A stretch of DNA of 64,000 nt from Flavobacterium sp. UBA7665 (lineage in GTDB: Bacteria > Bacteroidota > Bacteroidia > Flavobacteriales > Flavobacteriaceae): contig DLHP01000033.1 of the NCBI GenBank assembly GCA_002483285.1, forward strand, positions 22,980-86,979, written 5' to 3'. Below the pieces are notes generated by a model. It made no database searches. It was not told the origin of the DNA and saw nothing but the letters and a program-made list of their open reading frames with translations. This document shows positions 496 through 43,582 of the stretch, piece after piece. Both the position numbers and the translations under genes were made by a program. How positions within the stretch are numbered: position 1 is the first letter of the stretch; every line of letters starts with the position of its first letter.

Positions 496-1584
496 CTAAG
501 CTTTGGTTTTACCCGAAGCTTCGAGGTTTCTTTCAATCTGGTGGCCCGGCCTGGTCCATTTTGGTTTCTCGCCCAAGGCTGCAAATTGCGAGTCGGCGGC
601 TTCAACGGTCGGCGGTTGCATGACTTTGATGAACGGTTTCTGAGGAACCAGCCCTAGCATTTCAAACATTTTCATGTCGTCGTTGACATCGGGATTTGGT
701 GTTGTCAATAATTTATCGCCTGCAAAAATCGAGTTGGCTCCGGCAAAGAAACACATCGCCTGGCCTTCGCGACTCATGTTCATTCGTCCGGCAGAAAGAC
801 GTACCTGGGTTTCGGGCATTACGATCCTAGTCGTGGCCACCATTCGGATCATTTCCCAAATTTCTACAGGTTTTTCGTCTTCCATCGGTGTGCCTTCGAC
901 TGCAACGAGTGCGTTGATTGGCACCGATTCGGGTTGTGGATCTAATGTAGCCAAAGCCACGAGCATTCCGGCGCGGTCTTCTATCGATTCGCCCATTCCG
1001 ATGATGCCGCCGCTGCAAACCGTAACATTGGTTTTGCGTACGTTCTCGATGGTTTGGATGCGGTCTTCAAATCCACGCGTAGAAATGACTTCCTTATAAT
1101 ATTCTTCTGAGGTGTCTAAATTGTGGTTGTAGGCGTAGAGGCCGGCTTCGGCTAGGCGTTGTGCCTGGTTCTCGGTGATCATGCCCAAAGTACAGCAAAC
1201 TTCCATATCGAGTTTATTGATGGTACGGACCATCTCTAATACCTGGTCAAACTCAGGGCCGTCTTTTACATTTCGCCAGGCGGCGCCCATGCAAACACGC
1301 GAAGAACCGCTCGATTTGGCGCGCAAAGCCTGCGCTTTGACTTGTTGTACCGACATCAAATCGTTGCCGGTAATATCGGTGTGGTAACGCGCCGCCTGCG
1401 GGCAATAGCCGCAATCTTCTGGGCAACCGCCGGTTTTAATCGATAGTAAGGTAGAAACCTGCACCACATTGGGATCGTGGTGTTGGCGGTGGATGGTGGC
1501 CGCTTCAAAAAGCAGGTCCATCAAAGGCTTGTTGTATATCTCGAGAATTTCGGCTTTGGTCCAGTCGTGTTTGGTGCTGCTCAT
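496..1584 (-). CDS. bioB: Biotin synthase (radical SAM)
   Basis: CPEDCGYCPQ radical SAM motif, YNHNLDT, VPINAL, GANSIF.G.KLLTT. Start set at MSSTKHDW. Confidence 0.97.
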   Translation of the reverse strand: MSSTKHDWTKAEILEIYNKPLMDLLFEAATIHRQHHDPNVVQVSTLLSIKTGGCPEDCGYCPQAARYHTDITGNDLMSVQQVKAQALRAKSSGSSRVCMGAAWRNVKDGPEFDQVLEMVRTINKLDMEVCCTLGMITENQAQRLAEAGLYAYNHNLDTSEEYYKEVISTRGFEDRIQTIENVRKTNVTVCSGGIIGMGESIEDRAGMLVALATLDPQPESVPINALVAVEGTPMEDEKPVEIWEMIRMVATTRIVMPETQVRLSAGRMNMSREGQAMCFFAGANSIFAGDKLLTTPNPDVNDDMKMFEMLGLVPQKPFIKVMQPPTVEAADSQFAALGEKPKWTRPGHQIERNLEASGKTKA

Positions 1585-1694
1585 GGTCGTGCTTTTATTT
1601 GGTTCAAAAGTAGCAAATTCAACCGAAGTAAAAAACAAAAAAATCCCGCTGCAGGAAAGATTCGAACAGCGGGAATTATAATTGGATTTTGGAT

Positions 1695-2147
1695 TTAGTC
1701 TACTTTATTGATGACTTCTACTTTGTTTTTCCAGTATTGCATCAAACAGAAAGACACCATCAATGAGGCAGCTACCGATTCAAACAGTAAACCGATACAA
1801 TATTGGTGGATGGTCAATTCACCACCGCCAAAGATGAAACTTTCGGACAATTTCTCAAGGTAGGGCTTACCGCCTTTAAATTCGATGAATGCGAGCAAAC
1901 CCGCCACGCTTAGTACTGCACCAACCATCGAGGTGATGATGGCTGAAAGGAAATTCGTGTTGTAGCCGCGAATGCCATCGGAGTGGTTTTGGGTCAAGGT
2001 ACGGTTGACACCGTAAATAACAAACACGATGTTGAATATCCTTAGGATGAATTGGTCTGACAATCCCATAAATTGCAGGATCAGGAAGTAAACACCAATT
2101 CCAAGGAAGATAATGAATCCGTTGGCAAGTTCTCTGGAATATTTCAT
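1695..2147 (-). CDS. Small integral membrane protein (DUF4199-like)
   Basis: 150 aa with about 4 hydrophobic segments; family call is tentative. Confidence 0.6.
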   Translation of the reverse strand: MKYSRELANGFIIFLGIGVYFLILQFMGLSDQFILRIFNIVFVIYGVNRTLTQNHSDGIRGYNTNFLSAIITSMVGAVLSVAGLLAFIEFKGGKPYLEKLSESFIFGGGELTIHQYCIGLLFESVAASLMVSFCLMQYWKNKVEVINKVD

Positions 2148-2319
2148 AATGGTTTTTTTTAAGATTACTACAAAACAATGCTTTGTAGTAAAAGTTAGCT
2201 AATTAGATTTGATTCTAGTGTGTCGGGAATTTTGTTATCTAAATTTAAGCAATAAACCAAACCCTAACTTATAAATAAGAAAGAATTTAATACAACTTTA
2301 AACAGGGGAAAGAAAAATA

Positions 2320-3261
2320 CTACAGCTTTAAATTGCTGTTAATGAAATTGTTAGACCAATCACGGTCGGCTTCGATTTGAAGTTTGAGTGTGTTGAGGTC
2401 TTCGAATTTTTGCTCGTCGCGGATGTATGCCAGGAAAGAAACCTCCAGATTTTTTCCGTAAAGGTCGCCTTCAAAGTCAAGGTAATACACTTCGATAGAA
2501 AGCTTGTTGTCGTCGGTGACGGTAGGGTTTGTGCCGATGCTCATCATCCCATAAACGTTTTTCCCGTCGATTGTTGACGCCACCACATAAATGCCTTTTT
2601 TTGGAATCAGTTTGTAATTGGCGCCGATTTCAATGTTGGCGGTGGGGAAACCAATCGTGCGACCGAGCTGTTTGCCTTTGACCACGGTGCCCGTCAGGAA
2701 ATAGCGATAACCCAGATAGTCATTGGCCAGACTGATGTTACCTTGTTCGAGCGCCGTCCTGATTTTGGTAGAGCTGATAGATACTGCGTCGATCTCCTGG
2801 GCAGAAATCTGCTCAACTTCAAAATCGTATTGCTCGCCAAAGGCAATCAAATCGTTGATGTCGGCGGTACGGTTTCGGCCAAAGCGATGGTCGTGACCGA
2901 TAACAATCTTGCCGATGTTGAGCCGGTCGACGAGAATTTCCTGTACAAATTCCTCGGCAGAAAGCCTGGAGAAGGCCTTGTCAAATGGATGGATGATGAG
3001 GCTGTCCAGTCCGGTTTTGGCCAACAAAAGCGTTCGTTCCTCGATGGTGTTGAGCAACCTGATTTCTGACTGTTCCTGGAGCACCATACGCGGATGCGGG
3101 AAAAAAGTCAAAACCACACTTTCTAAATCGCCAGAATCGGTGTGCTGGATTAGTTTTTCGATGATTTTCTGGTGGCCCAGATGCACGCCGTCAAAAGTGC
3201 CTAGTGTGACCACGGTTTTTTTGTTGGATTGGAACTCAGAAATGGATTGAAAAATCTTCAA
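2320..3261 (-). CDS. ribF: Bifunctional riboflavin kinase/FAD synthetase
   Basis: GTFDGVHLGH, ISSTKIR, GRTIGFPTAN motifs. Confidence 0.96.
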   Translation of the reverse strand: MKIFQSISEFQSNKKTVVTLGTFDGVHLGHQKIIEKLIQHTDSGDLESVVLTFFPHPRMVLQEQSEIRLLNTIEERTLLLAKTGLDSLIIHPFDKAFSRLSAEEFVQEILVDRLNIGKIVIGHDHRFGRNRTADINDLIAFGEQYDFEVEQISAQEIDAVSISSTKIRTALEQGNISLANDYLGYRYFLTGTVVKGKQLGRTIGFPTANIEIGANYKLIPKKGIYVVASTIDGKNVYGMMSIGTNPTVTDDNKLSIEVYYLDFEGDLYGKNLEVSFLAYIRDEQKFEDLNTLKLQIEADRDWSNNFINSNLKL

Positions 3262-3479: not shown

Positions 3480-6179
3480 ATGAAAAAATTATTACTGTTT
3501 TTGGCGATTGTGCTTTCTTTTGCGCAATTGTCTGCTCAAAAAAGCGGCATGTGGAGCAGGGCTTCGGTGGCTCAAATACCGCAATCAGCGAAGATCAGAA
3601 CTACTGATTATTCTGAAAGAGAGCAATTTTACCAACTGAATGTCAATCAGTTGAGACAAGCCTTAACCAACGTTAACGACCGTTCTTCGGGACTGGCTGG
3701 TGTTGAAGTTTCATTTCCAAATATAGATGGACAAATGGAGCAATTCATGGTTTGGGAAAATTCTAATTTTGCGCCAGAATTGCAAGCAAGATTTCCGCAG
3801 ATCAGGGCCTATGTTGGGCACAGCCTTGCAGACAGAAGCGCGACCATCAATTTTAGTTTGTCACCACTTGGTGTGCAAACGATGGTGTTAAGGGCTGATA
3901 ATAATTCTGAGTTTATTGAATCGTACACCAAAGACCGTTCGGTTTACGTGTTGTTTGATTCGAAAACCAGGATGACCAACCGTTTGCCTTTCAAGTGTGC
4001 TACCGTTGATCAAAGGTTGGTACAAGACATCACAACAAATGGCGACGTCTTGAACCGTTCTAACGACCAAACCTACAAAACCATGCGTTTGGCTTTGTCT
4101 GTTGTGGGCGAGTATACGCAATATTTCGGTGGGACCGTTGCAGGTGCCATGGCCGGAATGAACGCTTCGATGACCAGGGTGAATGGTGTACTTGAAAAAG
4201 ATGTGGCCTTACACCTAAACATGATTCCTAACAATGACCTTTTGGTGTATACCAATCCAAATACCGACCCGTATTCGGGAGCGGCCGCAGGTTCGGGCGG
4301 TGCTTGGAATGCGGAGGTGCAAAGTACCATTACTTCGGTGATTGGTGAAGCCAATTATGACATCGGACACTTATTTGGAGCCGATGGCGGTGGTGGAAAC
4401 GCCGGTTGCATCGGTTGCGTTTGCGTCAGCCCAACTGCTCAAGTACCGCTCGGAAAAGGAAGCGCATTTACGTCTCCATACGATGCAATCCCTGCAGGAG
4501 ACAATTATGATATCGACTACGTAGTGCATGAAATGGGGCACCAACTGGGCGCGACGCACACTTTTTCGAATGAGGTGGAGTCGGCAGGGTCGAATGTAGA
4601 GCCAGGCAGTGGATCTACTATTATGGGTTATGCTGGAATTGTTGCTCCTGCTAATTTAAACGTGCAGGCGCATTCAGACGCTTACTATGTATACAAAAGC
4701 ATTCAACAAATCCAAACCAACCTGGCAGCTAAAACTTGTCCGGTGAGCGTGACGGTAAACAATACGCCGCCAACCGTTTCTGCGGGTGCAGATTTTACCA
4801 TCCCTAAAGGCACCGCTTTTATCTTAAAAGGAGTGGTTTCTGATGCGCAAGGTGATGCACTCACTTATTGCTGGGAGCAAAACAACAATGCGCCTGGCTC
4901 GCAATCGGGAGCAAACAGTATTTGTTATGCTACCAAAACTACGGGTCCAAACTTCAGGTCGTTCTCGCCAACTACAACCCCCGATCGTTACATGCCAGCT
5001 TTCTCTAAGGTTTTGGCAGGAACGCTCACCACAACTTGGGAATCGGTTAACACTACTGCAAGAACTTCAAGATATACCTTGACTGTTAGGGACAATAATG
5101 TTACCGGGCAGCAAACCAATACCGATGAAGTACTCGTTACAACAAGCGGAACAGTCGGACCATTCGCCTTTACGTCTCAGAATACAACTTCAGCTTGGAA
5201 TCTTGGCGAAAACCAAACCATTACCTGGGATGTTAACAATACCAACACTTTGCCTGGTTCTGCCAACGTCAATATTAAATTGTCGACCGATGGCGGTTTG
5301 ACTTTCCCATACATCCTGGCTGCAGACACGCCAAACGACGGTAGCGAGGTCATTGCTGTTCCTGATGTATCGCCATCATTGACTTGTAGGCTTTTGATTG
5401 AGCCAACCGGAAACGTTTATTATGCCGTAAATTCAGCGAATTTTTACATTGGATACACCATCGTAACCAGTTGCAACACCTATACTTTCAATACGCCATT
5501 CGCTATTCCTAACGGTTCTAATAGTTATACCGTAAAAAGTATCAATGTGCCAGCCGGAGGTATTATCAGTGACGTAAACATCACAGTGAATGCCACACAC
5601 CCAAACCTCCAAAACTTAACTATTGCGGTAATCAGGCCAAATGGAGGAACATTACAGCCGTTGTTCGCGCAACAATGTGCCGGAAACGCCGATATGAATG
5701 TAACTTTTGACCAACAAGGAGGCACTTTCACTTGTGCAAGCCCAACCGCCGGAACTTACGCACCGCCAACAGTGACCAACATGAATACTGCATTCAACGG
5801 TTTCAACCCAGTAGGAAACTGGCAATTTGGATTCAAGGACACGGTAGCTGGCGCAGATGCCGGAACTGTTAACTCTATTGCGCTTGAAGTTTGTTCGCAG
5901 ACTACCATACTAAGTACACAAGATTTTGGTTTCGAAGGATTTGCCCTGTACCCGAATCCAAGCAACGGTACCTTTAAAGTGCAATTCAACTCGACTGCTT
6001 CAGGTAAAGTTAACGTAGCGGTGCACGACATGAGCGGCAGACGAATTTTTGATAGATCGTATGCCAACTCGGGATTGTTTGCAGAAGATATCCAATTGGG
6101 CAATGCGCAGGCAGGTGTTTATTTGGTGTCGGTTACAGACGGAGCCAAAAAGATTGTTAAGCGAATTGTAATCCAGTAA
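3480..6179 (+). CDS. T9SS-secreted reprolysin-like (M12B) zinc metalloprotease with P-domain and C-terminal sorting domain
   Basis: Signal peptide, HEMGHQLGATH zinc motif, SGSTIMGYAG Met-turn, P-domain-like GNWQFGFKD...DAGTVNS, CTD LYPNPS...GVYLV...KRIVIQ. Confidence 0.9.
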   Translation: MKKLLLFLAIVLSFAQLSAQKSGMWSRASVAQIPQSAKIRTTDYSEREQFYQLNVNQLRQALTNVNDRSSGLAGVEVSFPNIDGQMEQFMVWENSNFAPELQARFPQIRAYVGHSLADRSATINFSLSPLGVQTMVLRADNNSEFIESYTKDRSVYVLFDSKTRMTNRLPFKCATVDQRLVQDITTNGDVLNRSNDQTYKTMRLALSVVGEYTQYFGGTVAGAMAGMNASMTRVNGVLEKDVALHLNMIPNNDLLVYTNPNTDPYSGAAAGSGGAWNAEVQSTITSVIGEANYDIGHLFGADGGGGNAGCIGCVCVSPTAQVPLGKGSAFTSPYDAIPAGDNYDIDYVVHEMGHQLGATHTFSNEVESAGSNVEPGSGSTIMGYAGIVAPANLNVQAHSDAYYVYKSIQQIQTNLAAKTCPVSVTVNNTPPTVSAGADFTIPKGTAFILKGVVSDAQGDALTYCWEQNNNAPGSQSGANSICYATKTTGPNFRSFSPTTTPDRYMPAFSKVLAGTLTTTWESVNTTARTSRYTLTVRDNNVTGQQTNTDEVLVTTSGTVGPFAFTSQNTTSAWNLGENQTITWDVNNTNTLPGSANVNIKLSTDGGLTFPYILAADTPNDGSEVIAVPDVSPSLTCRLLIEPTGNVYYAVNSANFYIGYTIVTSCNTYTFNTPFAIPNGSNSYTVKSINVPAGGIISDVNITVNATHPNLQNLTIAVIRPNGGTLQPLFAQQCAGNADMNVTFDQQGGTFTCASPTAGTYAPPTVTNMNTAFNGFNPVGNWQFGFKDTVAGADAGTVNSIALEVCSQTTILSTQDFGFEGFALYPNPSNGTFKVQFNSTASGKVNVAVHDMSGRRIFDRSYANSGLFAEDIQLGNAQAGVYLVSVTDGAKKIVKRIVIQ

Positions 6180-6199
6180 TTTACAAATCACAAATATTT

Positions 6200-6228
6200 A
6201 AAGCGTCTCTTTTCGGGACGCTTTTTTT
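6200..6228 (+). terminator. Intrinsic terminator between the two proteases
   Basis: aaagcgtctc-tttt-cgggacgcttt stem followed by a T tract. Confidence 0.7.
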
Positions 6229-6261
6229 ATTAACTTTACTGTCCTAATAACCAATCTCCTA

Positions 6262-8952
6262 TTGACTATGAAAAAAATGTTACTCCTGCTTGTTGCCATT
6301 TTCATGACTTTGGGCGCCTTTGCGCAGCAGTCGATTTGGCAAAAAATCAAACCCGAACAGGCAACTTCAGAAAAGTTGCATCGCGATTCCAATCCGTCTA
6401 AATTCTTAGTATACGCGCTCAATATGGACGCGCTCAAGCAACAATTGCAAACCGCACCTTCAAGGCTAAGCAATACAGAATCCAATACGATTGTGTCTTT
6501 CCCGACTCCTCAAGGCGAACTGCAAAGATTTAGGATTTACGAGGCCTCGATCATGAATCCTGAACTTGCTTCGAGATTCACAGACATTCAATCGTATGTG
6601 GGAATCGGTCTCGATGATAAATCGGCCACGATTCGTTTCAGTACGACCTTATTTGGTTTGCACACCATGACTTTCTCTGGTGTTCAGGGTACATCTTTCA
6701 TCGATCCGTATACGGTAGACAAAAAGAACTACATGGTCTTTAATAAGGCCGACCTGACCACTACCAAAAGTTTTGAATGCGGTGTACTAGACACGCCCGA
6801 CAATCTTGTCGAGGACATAGATGTTCAGGGGCCGTTGTATCGTGTGAATAACAGCTTGTTCAAGACCTTCAGGCTTGCTTTGTCGTGTACTATAGAATAT
6901 GCGGCTTTCCACGTCAACGCGGCGGGCTTAGGCGGCGGCACACTTATCCAGAAAAAGGCCGCAGTATTGGCTGCTATGGTTGTCACGATGACCAGGGTTA
7001 ACGGGGTTTTTGAAAAGGACATGTCGATGACCTTGCAACTCATTGCCAATAACGACGCCATTATCAATATCACGTCAGATAATTTGGATAATAATAATAA
7101 TGCCAATGTTCTTTTACAACAGAACCAGGATTTTATTGATTCGGTAATCGGAAATGCCAATTATGACATCGGTCACGTTGCCACGACAGGCGGTGGAGGT
7201 GTGGCTTCGCAAGGGCCTTGCCAACCAACATCTAAGGCGAAAGGGGTAACCGGTTTACCCTCACCGGTAGGCGACGAGTATGATATTGATTTTGTTGCGC
7301 ACGAAATGGGACACCAATTTGGCGCTTCGCACACCTTTAACGGCGATGCCGAAAACTGCGGTGGAGGAAATCGCGTGACTTCATCAGCTTACGAGCCGGG
7401 TAGCGGAACGACCATCATGGGTTATGCAGGAATTTGTGCACCACAGAATGTTCAAAACAACTCAGATGCTTATTACCATGCCAGAAGCATCATCCAAATG
7501 AGCGCTTATTTGGTTAATAATGACAATTGCTCGGTGTCGGTGCCAAGCGGTAATACGCCGCCAACGGTGAGCGCCGGAGCCAATTATACGATTCCTTACG
7601 GGACTGCTTTTGTATTGACGGGATCAGCTACCGACGCTGAAAATCAAGCCGGATTGACCTATTGCTGGGAACAGTACAATTTTAATATTTCAACACAACC
7701 ACCTGTGGCTTCCAGTGCAACAGGTCCTAATTTCAGGTCTTTCAACCCGACCGTTTCCCCGAGTAGGTATTTCCCGAGATTTCAAGATGTCCTGGCCAAC
7801 AACCTTACCCCAACCTGGGAAGTTGTCCCCAACGTTGCCCGAATTATGACGTTTTCTCTCGTGGCACGTGACAACCAAACGGTAAACGGCGGACAAACCG
7901 AAAGGGCTACAATGAATGTGACCTTTGCCAATACCGGGCCTTTCAAAGTGACTTCGCAAGCCACGCTCGAAGCTTGGCCACAAGGCTCGTCGCAAACCGT
8001 AACCTGGGATGTGGCAGGAACAACGGCAAATGGCATCAACACTGCCAATGTCAATATACGTATGTCTATTGATGGCGGGGCGACCTTCCCGATTATGCTT
8101 GCCGCCAACACGCCAAACGACGGGTCTGAAGCGATTACCACGCCCAATTTCACCTCACAAACCTGCAGAATCTTGATTGAAGCGGTAGACAATATATTCT
8201 ATGCTGTAAACAGTGCGACTTTCTATGTGGGATACCAATTGGTGACTACTTGTCGCACGTACACATTCAATACGCCTTTTGCGGTGCCAAACGGTTCTAA
8301 TTCTTATACCGTTAAAACTATCAATGTACCGGATCCGGGCGTAATCAGCGATGTAAATATCACCATCAATGCCACGCACCCCAACCTGCAAAACCTTACC
8401 ATGGCTGTAATCAGGCCAAACGGAGGAACCCTGAGCACGTTGTTTACCCAACAATGTTCAGGCAATGCAGATATGAATGTGACCTTTGACGCGCAAGGAA
8501 GCCCTTTTACCTGTGCAAGCCCCACCGTAGGGACTTATGTTCCGGCATCGGGATACAACCTGAATCTCATGAATGGTTTTAATCCGGTAGGGAACTGGCA
8601 GTTTGGGTTCAAGGACAATGTGGCCGGAGCCGATTCGGGAACAATCAATTCGATAACCCTTGAGGTTTGTTCGCAATCGTTACTAGCAGTTTCAGATTAT
8701 GAATTTGAGAATTTTGCGTTGTATCCGAATCCGAACAAAGGTAACTTTACCGTACAGTTCGAATCGCGATCAGGCAATAAAATCAATATAGCGATTCACG
8801 ATATGAGCGGTAGAAAAATCTTCGACAAGCACTACAACAACAACGGATTGTTTGCTCAGGATTTGCAACTCGATAATGCGCAAGCCGGCGTTTATCTGGT
8901 ATCAATTACCGATGGCAGTAAAAGGACCGTAAAACGCATCGTTGTTCAATAA
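6262..8952 (+). CDS. Second, tandem T9SS-secreted M12B metalloprotease paralog
   Basis: HEMGHQFGASH, SGTTIMGYAG, same domain order and CTD (LYPNPNKG...KRIVVQ). Confidence 0.9.
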   Translation: MTMKKMLLLLVAIFMTLGAFAQQSIWQKIKPEQATSEKLHRDSNPSKFLVYALNMDALKQQLQTAPSRLSNTESNTIVSFPTPQGELQRFRIYEASIMNPELASRFTDIQSYVGIGLDDKSATIRFSTTLFGLHTMTFSGVQGTSFIDPYTVDKKNYMVFNKADLTTTKSFECGVLDTPDNLVEDIDVQGPLYRVNNSLFKTFRLALSCTIEYAAFHVNAAGLGGGTLIQKKAAVLAAMVVTMTRVNGVFEKDMSMTLQLIANNDAIINITSDNLDNNNNANVLLQQNQDFIDSVIGNANYDIGHVATTGGGGVASQGPCQPTSKAKGVTGLPSPVGDEYDIDFVAHEMGHQFGASHTFNGDAENCGGGNRVTSSAYEPGSGTTIMGYAGICAPQNVQNNSDAYYHARSIIQMSAYLVNNDNCSVSVPSGNTPPTVSAGANYTIPYGTAFVLTGSATDAENQAGLTYCWEQYNFNISTQPPVASSATGPNFRSFNPTVSPSRYFPRFQDVLANNLTPTWEVVPNVARIMTFSLVARDNQTVNGGQTERATMNVTFANTGPFKVTSQATLEAWPQGSSQTVTWDVAGTTANGINTANVNIRMSIDGGATFPIMLAANTPNDGSEAITTPNFTSQTCRILIEAVDNIFYAVNSATFYVGYQLVTTCRTYTFNTPFAVPNGSNSYTVKTINVPDPGVISDVNITINATHPNLQNLTMAVIRPNGGTLSTLFTQQCSGNADMNVTFDAQGSPFTCASPTVGTYVPASGYNLNLMNGFNPVGNWQFGFKDNVAGADSGTINSITLEVCSQSLLAVSDYEFENFALYPNPNKGNFTVQFESRSGNKINIAIHDMSGRKIFDKHYNNNGLFAQDLQLDNAQAGVYLVSITDGSKRTVKRIVVQ

Positions 8953-40944: not shown

Positions 40945-41065
40945 AAAGACCGCTATGCTGAAAGACCGCTGCGCTGCAAGAAGAAAGAGTTAAGACTTCC
41001 ATAAACTCGACAGTCGTTCTTCTTGCAGCGCAGCGATCTTGCTTCTATCAGCGTTAGCGGTCTTT
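40945..41065. repeat. Nested long hairpin (REP/MITE-like) upstream of the nuoA promoter
   Basis: 19-bp perfect inverted repeat 40967-40985 / 41017-41035 inside an 11-bp outer repeat 40945-40955 / 41055-41065. Confidence 0.7.
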
Positions 41066-41083
41066 TTTCTAACTTTATCCAAT

Positions 41084-41114
41084 AAAAAAACGCCCCGATT
41101 CCTCGAGGCGTTGT
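41084..41114 (-). terminator. Terminator of the cold-shock gene
   Basis: A7 plus cgcc.cga...tcgaggcg stem. Confidence 0.55.
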
Positions 41115-41146
41115 TCTTTAGGCAACAAAAATAGTGGTATATATTT

Positions 41147-41347
41147 TTAGTTTTCGAGAGCTACTACTTGCGCAGCAACTTTACCTTTTCTTCCTTCTTC
41201 TTCTTCGTAAGATACTCTGTCACCTTCGCGAAGTTCTTCCGCTTTGATTCCTGAAGCATGAACGAAGATATCTTTTCCTGTTTCTTCGTCTGTAATGAAT
41301 CCGTAACCTTTAGACTCATTGAAAAATTTAACTGTTCCTGTACGCAT
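41147..41347 (-). CDS. Cold-shock protein
   Basis: GTVKFFNESKGYGFI, DIFVHASG; 66 aa. Confidence 0.95.
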   Translation of the reverse strand: MRTGTVKFFNESKGYGFITDEETGKDIFVHASGIKAEELREGDRVSYEEEEGRKGKVAAQVVALEN

Positions 41348-41476
41348 TGTAATAATGATAATAAATTTATAATGACGCAAATGTAATCTTTAAAATAATA
41401 CGAAAATCACTTACCTGTTAAAATTTTCTAAAAATTATTGATTCTCAGTGAATTCGAAATTTTTTTTGAAGGAAAT

Positions 41477-43294
41477 TTATTTTAAATCGAGTTTAATATG
41501 CAATTCGTTCAGCTGCGCGTTGTCAATCGCCGAAGGCGCGTCAATCATCACATCACGCCCCGAATTGTTTTTCGGGAACGCGATAAAATCACGAATGGTT
41601 TCCTGTCCGCCCAAAATCGCCACCAAGCGATCGAGCCCAAAAGCCAATCCTCCATGCGGCGGCGCACCGTATTGAAAGGCGTCCATCAAAAACCCGAACT
41701 GGTTTTGGGCCTGTTCTTTTGTAAAACCGAGCAAGCTAAACATATAGCTTTGTGTTTGTTTATCGTGGATTCGGATCGATCCGCCTCCAATTTCGTTACC
41801 GTTAAGCACCATATCGTATGCGTTAGCTTTGAGTCTATCAATAACCGGATCGCGTTCTTGCAATAACTCCGCCGTATTTTTCAATAGATCAAAAACTTCA
41901 TAAAGATGTTTTTGTTGTTTCGCGGTTAGAGCTTTGATTTTTGGAGAAGTAAAAGGATGGTGCATCGCATGATACCTTTTACTTTCCTCGTCCCATTCAA
42001 ATAGAGGAAAGTCTACGACCCAAAGCGGAGCGTATTGGTCAGGCTTCCTGAGGTTTAAACGTGTGGCAAGTTCCATACGAAGTGTGCTAAGACGTGTTCT
42101 TGTTTTATGCACATCTCCGCACATAAAAAGCATCAAATCTCCTGGAATGGCTTGAGTTTTTAAAGCCCAGAATTTGAAATTTTCCTCAGTATAAAATTTA
42201 TCAACAGATGATTTAAAAGTGCCGTCGGTTTCATATTTAACCCAAATTAGGCCATCGGCTCCTACTTGAGGACGTTTAACCCAATCAATCAATTCATCTA
42301 TTTGCTTTCTAGAATATGTGGCGCAATTTGGAACAGCTATTCCAACAACCAATTCCGCTTTTTGGAAAATACTAAAATCTTTGGCTCTTTTCGCGTCTTT
42401 TGTAATTTCTCCAAATTTCATCCCAAAACGGATGTCTGGCTTATCGTTGCCATACGTTCTCATTGCATAATCGTATGTTATTACTGGAAATCTCTTTTTA
42501 GGAATATTATGAAATTTATTTAATAAGTGATTAGTCAATCCCTCGAACATCCGAATAATATCTTTTTGCTCGACAAAAGCCATTTCACAATCGATCTGCG
42601 TAAACTCAGGCTGACGGTCGGCTCTTAAATCTTCATCTCTAAAACATTTCACAATCTGGAAATACTTGTCCATGCCACCCACCATGAGCAATTGCTTGAA
42701 TGTTTGCGGCGACTGAGGTAAGGCATAAAATTCCCCTTTATTCATTCTGCTAGGCACAATAAAATCTCTTGCGCCTTCGGGAGTAGATTTAATAAGAACA
42801 GGTGTTTCTATCTCACAAAACCCTTTTTTAGAAAGGTAATTCCGTACTTCCATCGCCACTTTATGGCGAAACAGCAGCGCGTTCTTCACCGGATTTCTCC
42901 TAATATCAAGGTAACGGAATTTCATACGCGTTTCTTCACCACCGTCGGTTTCATCCTCAATCGTAAACGGCGGCGTGATCGCAGCGTTCAGAACGGTAAG
43001 TTCAGAAACTAAAATCTCGATATCGCCGGTCGCCATATTCTTATTCTTCGATTCGCGCTCAATGACTTTGCCTTTCACCTGAATCACAAATTCGCGTCCG
43101 AGCGTGCGTGACTTTTCAAATGTGTCCTTGTCTGTACGATTGTCAAAAAGCAACTGCGTGATGCCGTAGCGGTCGCGCAAATCTACCCAGTTCATAAAAC
43201 CTTTGTCGCGCGATTTCTGCACCCAGCCCGCGAGCGTAACTTCTTGATTGATGTTTGCGGCGGTTAATTCACCGCAATTGTGACTTCTGTACAT
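41477..43294 (-). CDS. aspS: Aspartate-tRNA ligase with a divergent AT-rich central segment
   Basis: [51 protein letters not shown]. Confidence 0.96.
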
Positions 43295-43372
43295 GGTTGA
43301 AAATTTATGGCGCAAATTTAGCTCAAAAAATATAATTTATATCATAAGAATATCATTCCAGTTTGGATTTTG

Positions 43373-43582
43373 TTGGGCGTTGCCTGCGGCCCGCGCTTTC
43401 CGCAGTGCGCGGCACTTTGCTGCAATCGCTAACGCGGGCATCGGTTTCAGCCGGAGCTTTGCGTTAAGGATGGCAGCGGTATCCTTTTGCGAGGTTACGA
43501 GCAAAAGATACAAGCGAACAGCCTGGCCGCGTCGCGAATTTTCAATTTTAGCCATTTTAGCCAAAACGCGGCAACGCCCAAA
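43373..43582. repeat. REP-like copy C inside a ~210-bp unit bounded by 12-bp inverted repeats
   Basis: ttgggcgttgcc (43373-43384) ... ggcaacgcccaa (43570-43581); REP body 43375-43440. Confidence 0.6.

Follow-up and report, generated by a model that had tools for sequence, protein, structure and literature searches.

Mosaic pbp genes of Streptococcus pneumoniae and penA genes of Neisseria are essential genes with sharp-edged divergent blocks, imported from related species by homologous recombination, and for both of them beta-lactams are known as the selective agent and commensal species as the donors. Among aminoacyl-tRNA synthetases (aaRSs), Andam, Gogarten and co-workers have described 'homeoalleles', which are divergent, functionally equivalent forms that circulate in a taxon and, through homologous recombination, take each other's place at one chromosomal site, usually with one form per genome (PMC3191353). 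In addition, substitutions in the aspartyl-tRNA synthetase (AspRS) of mycobacteria have been described in connection with a thiazolidinone inhibitor, namely D179N in Mycobacterium bovis BCG and F526L and T570I in Mycobacterium tuberculosis (PMC4237437). Here, we examine the AspRS gene, aspS, in a 64-kb stretch of DNA (hereafter, the window) from a Flavobacterium metagenome-assembled genome (MAG) of wastewater/biofilm type (Flavobacterium sp. UBA7665, contig DLHP01000033.1), the source being a biofilm metagenome of 2013. Our analysis indicates that this gene is very probably a natural intragenic recombinant, in which a centre of ~1.15 kb was imported from the allele of an AT-rich relative.

Composition and divergence of the central tract

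The centre of aspS (hereafter, the tract) differs from the two ends of the same gene in base composition. In codons 1-140 and 520-605, the GC content at third codon positions (GC3) ranges over 0.53-0.65, and it falls to 0.23-0.37 in codons ~150-180 and ~240-475. Measured over 100 codons at a time, the GC3 of the tract is 0.26-0.30, which is under that of all 442 control windows from other core genes of the 64-kb window (mean 0.548, SD 0.073, minimum 0.32), a low-GC mobile island at 12.5-26.7 kb having been left out of the controls. The dip in GC is not due to chance; the composition of the tract is foreign, and that of its flanks matches the local genome. A preliminary description of this DNA had drawn attention to the dip from four 60-nt windows counted by hand, and recomputation reproduced all four values exactly (0.217 at 42481-42540, 0.283 at 42181-42240, 0.533 at 41521-41580 and 0.467 at 43021-43080). 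The limits that it had given, 41700-42850, are also in near-exact agreement with the breakpoints derived here (~41705-41710 and 42846-42850).

Two syntenic relatives, at ~83-87% DNA identity, were available for comparison, L081, a 3.86-Mb JGI genome that encodes P0002, and L083, a Logan contig that encodes P0005. In both, aspS has a GC3 of 0.5-0.7 throughout, including the tract codons, and a short linker in the region where the window has an insert, such that neither the GC profile nor the insert of the window is present in these close relatives. Genes neighbouring aspS are ~81-89% identical in DNA between the window and the relatives, and divergence across the flanking genes is ordinary and even throughout 12 kb. 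When aligned colinearly with L083 over 12 kb, the window has just one ungapped coding stretch with an identity below 0.70, at ~41711-42835, which is also the sole place where the GC of the window lies well under that of the relative. Indeed, nucleotide identity to the relatives is 0.59-0.70 in the tract and 0.8-0.95 elsewhere in the alignment.

The same contrast is seen at the level of codons, for which the tract was taken as aa 241-500 and the ends as aa 1-120 and 541-605, with L081 versus L083 as a control pair. Between the window and the relatives, amino acid identity is 0.62-0.63 in the tract and 0.95-0.97 in the ends, as compared to 0.945 for the control pair over the tract codons. Nonsynonymous divergence (dN) in the tract is 0.31, eightfold above the 0.04 of the control pair in the same codons, and is 0.020-0.033 in the ends. 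The proportion of synonymous differences (pS) is saturated in the tract, at 0.82-0.83, and is 0.58 for the control pair and 0.43-0.52 in the ends. Taken separately, the 5' segment has 95-100% amino acid identity to L081 and L083, a pS of 0.49-0.52 (aa 1-120) that is like that of L081 versus L083, and a GC3 of 0.53-0.60, and the 3' segment has 97% amino acid identity and a pS of 0.43-0.48. Sliding identity in the GAD region, which lies inside the tract, is 0.47-0.70 to all relatives.

These differences have sharp boundaries. A two-breakpoint maximum chi-square scan placed breakpoints at aa 153 and 531 with a chi-square of 107.9, the highest value in 200 permutations being 23.7, and in the codon alignment the differences turn dense at codon ~150 and cease past codon ~530. 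Nucleotide differences between the window and L081/L083 amount to 0.34 inside the tract and 0.12 outside it, and third-position differences to 0.60 and 0.30, respectively; the contrast between inside and outside has a Fisher p of ~1e-24 to 1e-27 for the window, as against p = 0.12-0.16 for the control pair. The discordant divergence and the sharp breakpoints support the proposal of the preliminary description that the centre of aspS was replaced via recombination with a low-GC allele.

The junctions in independent assemblies and natural populations

The possibility of a chimeric assembly, which had been raised together with that proposal, was looked for and is ruled out by even depth, by an independent assembly and by contigs from other samples. 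An independent Logan assembly of the source run contains a single 2336-bp contig over 41306-43641 that has 0 differences from the window and a depth of 49.3, and the contigs adjoining it have depths of 46.3 and 48.5. The tract was also found in two runs of a 2024 study (X2 and X3) and in three wastewater runs (X5, X7 and X9), of which X7 and X9 are of metatranscriptome type. In X2 and X3, a 1000-bp contig over 41657-42656, with 16 differences from the window (depths 34.5 and 19.7), and a 310-bp contig over 42642-42944 (depth 39 in X2 and 21.5 in X3) together carry the tract across both junctions, the depth of the flank contig being 80-100. Pieces of the tract in X5, X7 and X9 are 99-100% identical to the window. 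Contigs that cross the junctions in X2, X3 and X9, which come from other studies and years, are 96-99% identical to it, and the junctions have therefore been seen apart from the source assembly both by a second assembler on the source run and in three other runs of two other studies.

Mosaic and standard alleles segregate on the same flanks in natural populations. At lower stringency, X2 yields a parallel 310-bp contig with a depth of 58.9, which matches the flank, is strongly different inside and has 97 unalignable bases. The depths of the two 310-bp contigs in X2 add up to that of the flank (39 + 58.9 = 97.9), and unitig depths put the share of the X2 population with the mosaic allele at about 40%. 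Contigs of the other allele in X9 part from the window exactly at 41710 on one side and 42846 on the other, matching it up to the former and down to the latter; translation of the loose ends gives FKYLGFSEEE and RKFLSEEGFC, which belong to the standard allele of P0002/P0005 type.

The linker insertion

A further peculiarity of the tract is the distance between HHPFTSP and ANAYD, which in the alignment is 38 residues in the window and 16 in standard Flavobacterium AspRS, as had been claimed for this protein with about 16 residues as the typical length. The short linker is present in 178 of the 184 Flavobacterium-type AspRS retrieved and the long form in 6 of the 184, and none of 80 species-representative genomes has a long linker. 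Homologous inserts were found in P0003 (L084), P0004 (L085), P0149 (L089) and P0177 (L090), with the shared pattern …[DN][ILV]L…ER[DN]P[VLI]ID.L[KNR]ANAYD. Because the insert of the window is homologous to those of L084, L085, L089 and L090, it appears to have been inherited, and its homology indicates that it could not have originated in situ. L084 and L085 are Flavobacterium MAGs with 34.6% GC, and the GC3 of their aspS is 0.22-0.28; thus, a low-GC, insert-bearing kind of Flavobacterium aspS exists that is like the tract in composition.

More broadly, standard linker length is modal among 103 diverse AspRS cluster representatives, 13 of which have a linker at least 11 residues longer, and the linker site is a hot spot for indels across bacterial AspRS in general. 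The insert is probably helical, as AlphaFold predicts a long helix at 458-478 and a short one at 483-486, with a predicted local distance difference test score (pLDDT) of only 51-56. Local duplication and a mobile mini-element were considered as sources of the insert and rejected, as there was no supporting repeat. Nothing specific was found in the literature on inserts in the AspRS linker or His loop.

Phylogeny and the search for a donor

The flank columns yield a tree in which the window forms a group with L081 and L083 (SH-like approximate likelihood ratio test, SH-aLRT, 98), its end branch being 0.021. With the tract columns, from which the insert was left out, the window falls outside the starred clades containing L081 and L083, with an end branch of 0.73-0.89 versus a median of ~0.06. 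When outgroups are included, the tract lies within the Flavobacterium clade, close to its base. A tree of the GAD part only places the window with L087 and the low-GC MAG L001 (support 98/98; 65-70% amino acid identity), and these two are the nearest kin of the tract, for the GAD part only. Two records that nest in Flavobacterium carry other names: L019 ('Bifidobacterium breve isolate HRS-ES1-bin-434') and L071 ('Bdellovibrio sp. ZAP7 isolate HRS-ES1-bin-470') have a Flavobacterium-type aspS with 74-75% identity. These MAG labels look wrong, or the bins contaminated.

The tract was also used as a query in several collections. A tract-restricted search of 5.8 billion proteins gave matches of at best 61-66% tract-wide and up to 71% on partial alignments, and an insert-restricted search of the same proteins returned the window's own protein alone. 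A full HMMER scan of 1.84 billion cluster representatives reached 60% at best, and JGI metagenome contigs 51%. There were no matches among IMG/VR viral contigs, and plasmids and phages gave at most 59%, in records that are chromids or host DNA. Because these viral, plasmid and phage searches were negative, a mobile-element or phage origin of the tract is unsupported. The most economical reading is that the donor was an unsampled, fast-evolving, AT-rich Flavobacterium-like lineage.

Probable origin of the mosaic gene

We postulate that codons ~149-530 of a resident aspS were exchanged by homologous recombination, with crossovers in or beside highly conserved stretches, and that the donor of the incoming piece was a low-GC Flavobacterium-like lineage, absent from public data, whose aspS would have been divergent, rich in AT and equipped with the insert. 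The resulting protein would be a normal bacterial-type, discriminating-style AspRS, which has the anticodon-binding domain and motif 3 of the resident gene and owes motif 1, motif 2, the GAD domain, the His loop and an extended helical linker to the donor. The mosaic allele, which is probably functional, coexists with the standard allele in nature.

Several points weigh against such an import. Homologous recombination at ~63% identity is mechanistically hard, and would need crossovers in short conserved islands. The donor was not found, with nothing more than 71% identical to the tract in any database searched, and the branch of the tract is long because no donor was found. Moreover, the placement of the tract is unstable across trees, being sister to L087 in one and basal in another, and an approximately unbiased (AU) test on protein columns, in which the flank topology was forced on the centre, gave p = 0.073 and hence no significant rejection. 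Topology alone is not decisive; the argument for import is built on saturated synonymous sites, composition, sharp boundaries, homology of the insert and the population data.

Perhaps the polarity was the reverse, and the gene or region was once a low-GC allele whose two ends were later converted back by close relatives. This history would be expected to leave the same mosaic pattern, and the X2 flanks, which are exactly common to mosaic and standard strains, point to ongoing homogenisation of the flanks. It is nevertheless very unlikely, as it needs two events, not one, the flanking genes over 12 kb are ordinarily and uniformly diverged from the relatives, and it is the tract that is foreign to the genome in composition, with flanks that match.

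Alternatively, the resident centre might have undergone accelerated evolution in situ, through relaxed or positive selection together with AT-biased mutation, without any foreign DNA. This would fit with the absence of a donor from all databases searched, with the very long end branch, with the AU test, in which a grouping of the centre with the relatives of the flanks is not rejected, and with a raised content of the residues F, Y, M, I, N and K (FYMINK; 0.324 vs 0.27). We nonetheless regard evolution in place as highly improbable, because synonymous saturation and a fall in GC3 of 0.3 are confined within sharp boundaries, for which there is no known local process. Further arguments against it are the 22-residue insert, homologous to inserts of other lineages, a dN/dS well below 1 with within-allele differences at 10 synonymous to 1 non-synonymous, and the derived states that the GAD part has in common with L087 and L001. 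Finally, an artefact of assembly or binning, by which two organisms were joined at common conserved k-mers, might be imagined for a metagenomic window whose junctions both adjoin highly conserved motifs, where organisms can share k-mers, but is barely conceivable in view of the single contig of the source run, with zero differences and a depth like that of the flanks, and of the contigs from X2, X3 and X9 that cross each junction at depths that fit two alleles on shared flanks.

Function and selection

If the centre of aspS was imported, it was imported together with an unaltered set of catalytic residues. The residues of motifs 1-3, of QSPQ and of the HHPF loop do not vary among the window and 13 relatives, and QSPQ, a 38-residue motif 2 segment, the HHPF loop, a further segment of 13 residues and GLAFGLDR of motif 3 are the same as in the standard allele. 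Most replacements are found in the linker, the surface helices, the GAD domain and the helix that follows motif 2. The preliminary description had spoken of a divergent catalytic and GAD core, which holds for the GAD part and is overstated for the catalytic part, where every catalytic motif residue is identical to the standard allele.

In the tract, dN/dS is well below 1, and the X2 version departs from that of the window by 11 listed differences, 10 of them synonymous once multi-hit codons are combined, because of which the mosaic allele is evidently under purifying selection. We infer that the product would be an AspRS functionally equivalent to the standard form. The single, syntenic housekeeping position of aspS, the purifying selection and the tract-matching contigs in X7 and X9, which are of metatranscriptome type, lend indirect support to a putative role in the aspartylation of tRNA-Asp.

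It had further been suggested that the tract reflects selection by an AspRS inhibitor or an altered specificity. This remains speculation, because neither substitutions in the catalytic motifs nor a linked biosynthetic or resistance locus, as might be looked for in an inhibitor-resistant variant, were seen, the latter among the neighbours of aspS in the window. The site of the insert is one at which indels are common in bacterial AspRS. For microcin C, the portion of the literature at hand describes resistance as enzymatic, through S51-family peptidases and histidine-triad hydrolases, alongside efficient export. To our knowledge, no target-site AspRS variants have been described for microcin C resistance.

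A broader possibility is that the tract, or the linker and GAD surface within it, has been positively selected and is spreading by recombination across diverged Flavobacterium backgrounds, the advantage being a changed interaction with an antagonist (for instance, a natural AspRS inhibitor or a phage or toxin protein) or with a partner. We consider this unlikely on present evidence, although there are weak hints of it. When the X2 strain is compared with the window, the tract has diverged by only ~1.5% and the adjoining flanks by 4-6%, wastewater runs of 2025 contain pieces of the tract with 99-100% identity, and two further independent aspS mosaics, in L084 and L087, overlap the same region.

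In L084 (positions 6001-7815; GCA_017744675.1, P0003), comparison with L013 and L025 (~91% nucleotide identity) reveals a shorter, independent mosaic, in which codons ~396-500 are at 0.58-0.79 identity, with a proportion of nonsynonymous differences (pN) of 0.153 versus 0.011; this segment has the homologous long linker. In L087 (positions 6001-7749; a Logan contig, P0006), comparison with L012 gives identities of 0.90-0.96 at the ends and 0.62-0.82 in codons ~244-400, the GAD region, where derived residues are in common with the tract of the window and where L087 groups with the window and L001. The aspS of L089 (positions 1177-3030; a TARA Oceans scaffold, P0149) may be another mosaic. Read in successive blocks of 40 codons, its GC3 starts at 0.10-0.30 (five blocks), rises to 0.50-0.65 in most of the following six, apart from one at 0.35, drops to 0.38 and 0.20 around the linker and finishes at 0.55-0.65, and there is an extra insertion in the OB-fold domain.

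Gene structure and neighbourhood

The positions of aspS and its segments are collected in Table 1. As first read, the open reading frame is intact, and Pfam finds all three AspRS domains in it: the OB-fold (PF01336, E = 3.5e-12, residues 19-102), the class II core (PF00152, E = 6e-115) and, between motifs 2 and 3, the GAD domain (E = 4.2e-12). Over its whole length, the product is 75-78% identical to Flavobacterium AspRS.

Table 1. Coordinates in the window of aspS, its resident segments and the proposed imported tract.
Feature	Coordinates	Strand	Remarks
aspS, aspartate--tRNA ligase	41477..43294	minus	intact ORF, 605 aa from ATG at MYRSH
Resident 5' segment, aa 1 to ~148	42851..43294	minus	OB-fold anticodon-binding domain and hinge
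Probable imported tract, aa ~149-530, ~1.15 kb	41705..42850	minus	motif 1, motif 2, GAD, His loop, long linker; stops before motif 3
GAD insertion domain, aa 313-397	42104..42358	minus	Pfam PF02938; most divergent piece of the tract
HHPFTSP-ANAYD linker, 38 residues	41828..41941	minus	holds the ~22-residue insertion (alignment)
Resident 3' segment, aa ~531-605	41477..41704	minus	includes motif 3

An AlphaFold (AF2) model built from a diverse alignment has a pLDDT of 81, with the strands of the OB-fold beta-barrel at 87-94; an earlier model from 40 near-identical sequences had a pLDDT of 55 and was discarded. In Foldseek comparisons, the model matches the structures 6WOM (Elizabethkingia) and 1C0A (Escherichia coli AspRS) with template modelling (TM) scores of 0.83-0.88, and the predicted GAD fold matches 6WOM, 1C0A and 1EFW.

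The ATG at MYRSH is the start kept across the AspRS family. An in-frame TTG at 43315, 7 codons upstream (MRHKFST-, 43295-43315), would give a protein of 612 aa; the relative P0005 has the same upstream TTG, and gene callers took it for 612- and 589-aa versions.

The order of genes around aspS is that of the genus, with a MORN-repeat gene, aspS, a cold-shock gene and the nuo operon. The neighbours, which are alike in the relatives, comprise csp, the nuo operon, MORN-repeat and DUF4142 genes, a TonB receptor and a resistance-nodulation-division (RND) pump. No RNA gene or tRNA was found within the aspS tract. In the GC-rich spacer upstream of aspS, a match to the Flavo-1 RNA motif (RF01705) lies at 43445-43532 on the plus strand and scores 39.1 bits against a gathering score of 42, and a hairpin with 27-nt arms lies at 40962-41040, between nuoA and the cold-shock gene. 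Summed contig depth is very high at both places and contigs link 40988 to 43459, which suggests that the RF01705-like site and the hairpin belong to one dispersed repeat or small RNA (sRNA) family that brackets the csp-aspS pair.

Comparison with known systems and significance

If our reading is correct, an essential translation enzyme is itself a chimera of two lineages, verified at the level of populations, where most reported aaRS replacements are of the whole gene. AspRS would then tolerate a combination in which the anticodon-binding domain and motif 3 stem from one lineage, and the core, the GAD domain and an extended linker from an allele that is ~40% divergent in protein. Coexisting alleles on identical flanks, and the recurrence of overlapping mosaics, provide a natural experiment on selection at the GAD and linker surface. 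In practical terms, such mosaics can distort single-gene phylogenies as well as MAG quality checks that use aaRS markers.

Among solved structures, the closest is that of AspRS from Elizabethkingia sp. (PDB 6WOM; E-value 2.5e-268), which has the OB-fold, class II core and GAD domain in common with the model, at 66% identity over aligned columns and TM scores of 0.85/0.88 (Foldseek). The linker of 6WOM is the short one of 16 residues, and a 22-residue gap in the alignment falls exactly at the insert of the window. The resistant mycobacterial enzymes demonstrate that AspRS variants are selectable by an inhibitor, through single substitutions lining the pocket (PMC4237437). In the window, unlike in mycobacterial AspS, the residues of the catalytic site are kept, and it is the GAD domain, the surface helices and the linker, with its 22-residue insertion, that differ.

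With the pbp and penA mosaics, aspS has in common a sharp divergent block inside an essential gene that is otherwise typical of its species. The closest concept, however, is that of the homeoalleles, which are alike in that divergent aaRS forms are replaced by recombination in a conserved neighbourhood (PMC3191353). Described homeoalleles are swaps of whole genes, with crossovers in the flanking genes and forms that are often <30% identical (PMC3191353), whereas in the aspS of the window the crossovers would be intragenic and the enzyme chimeric. A second difference from described homeoalleles is that both forms of aspS segregate within single metagenomic populations. Mosaic and homeoallele-like aaRS genes are already known as a class, of which this aspS is a well-documented further example.

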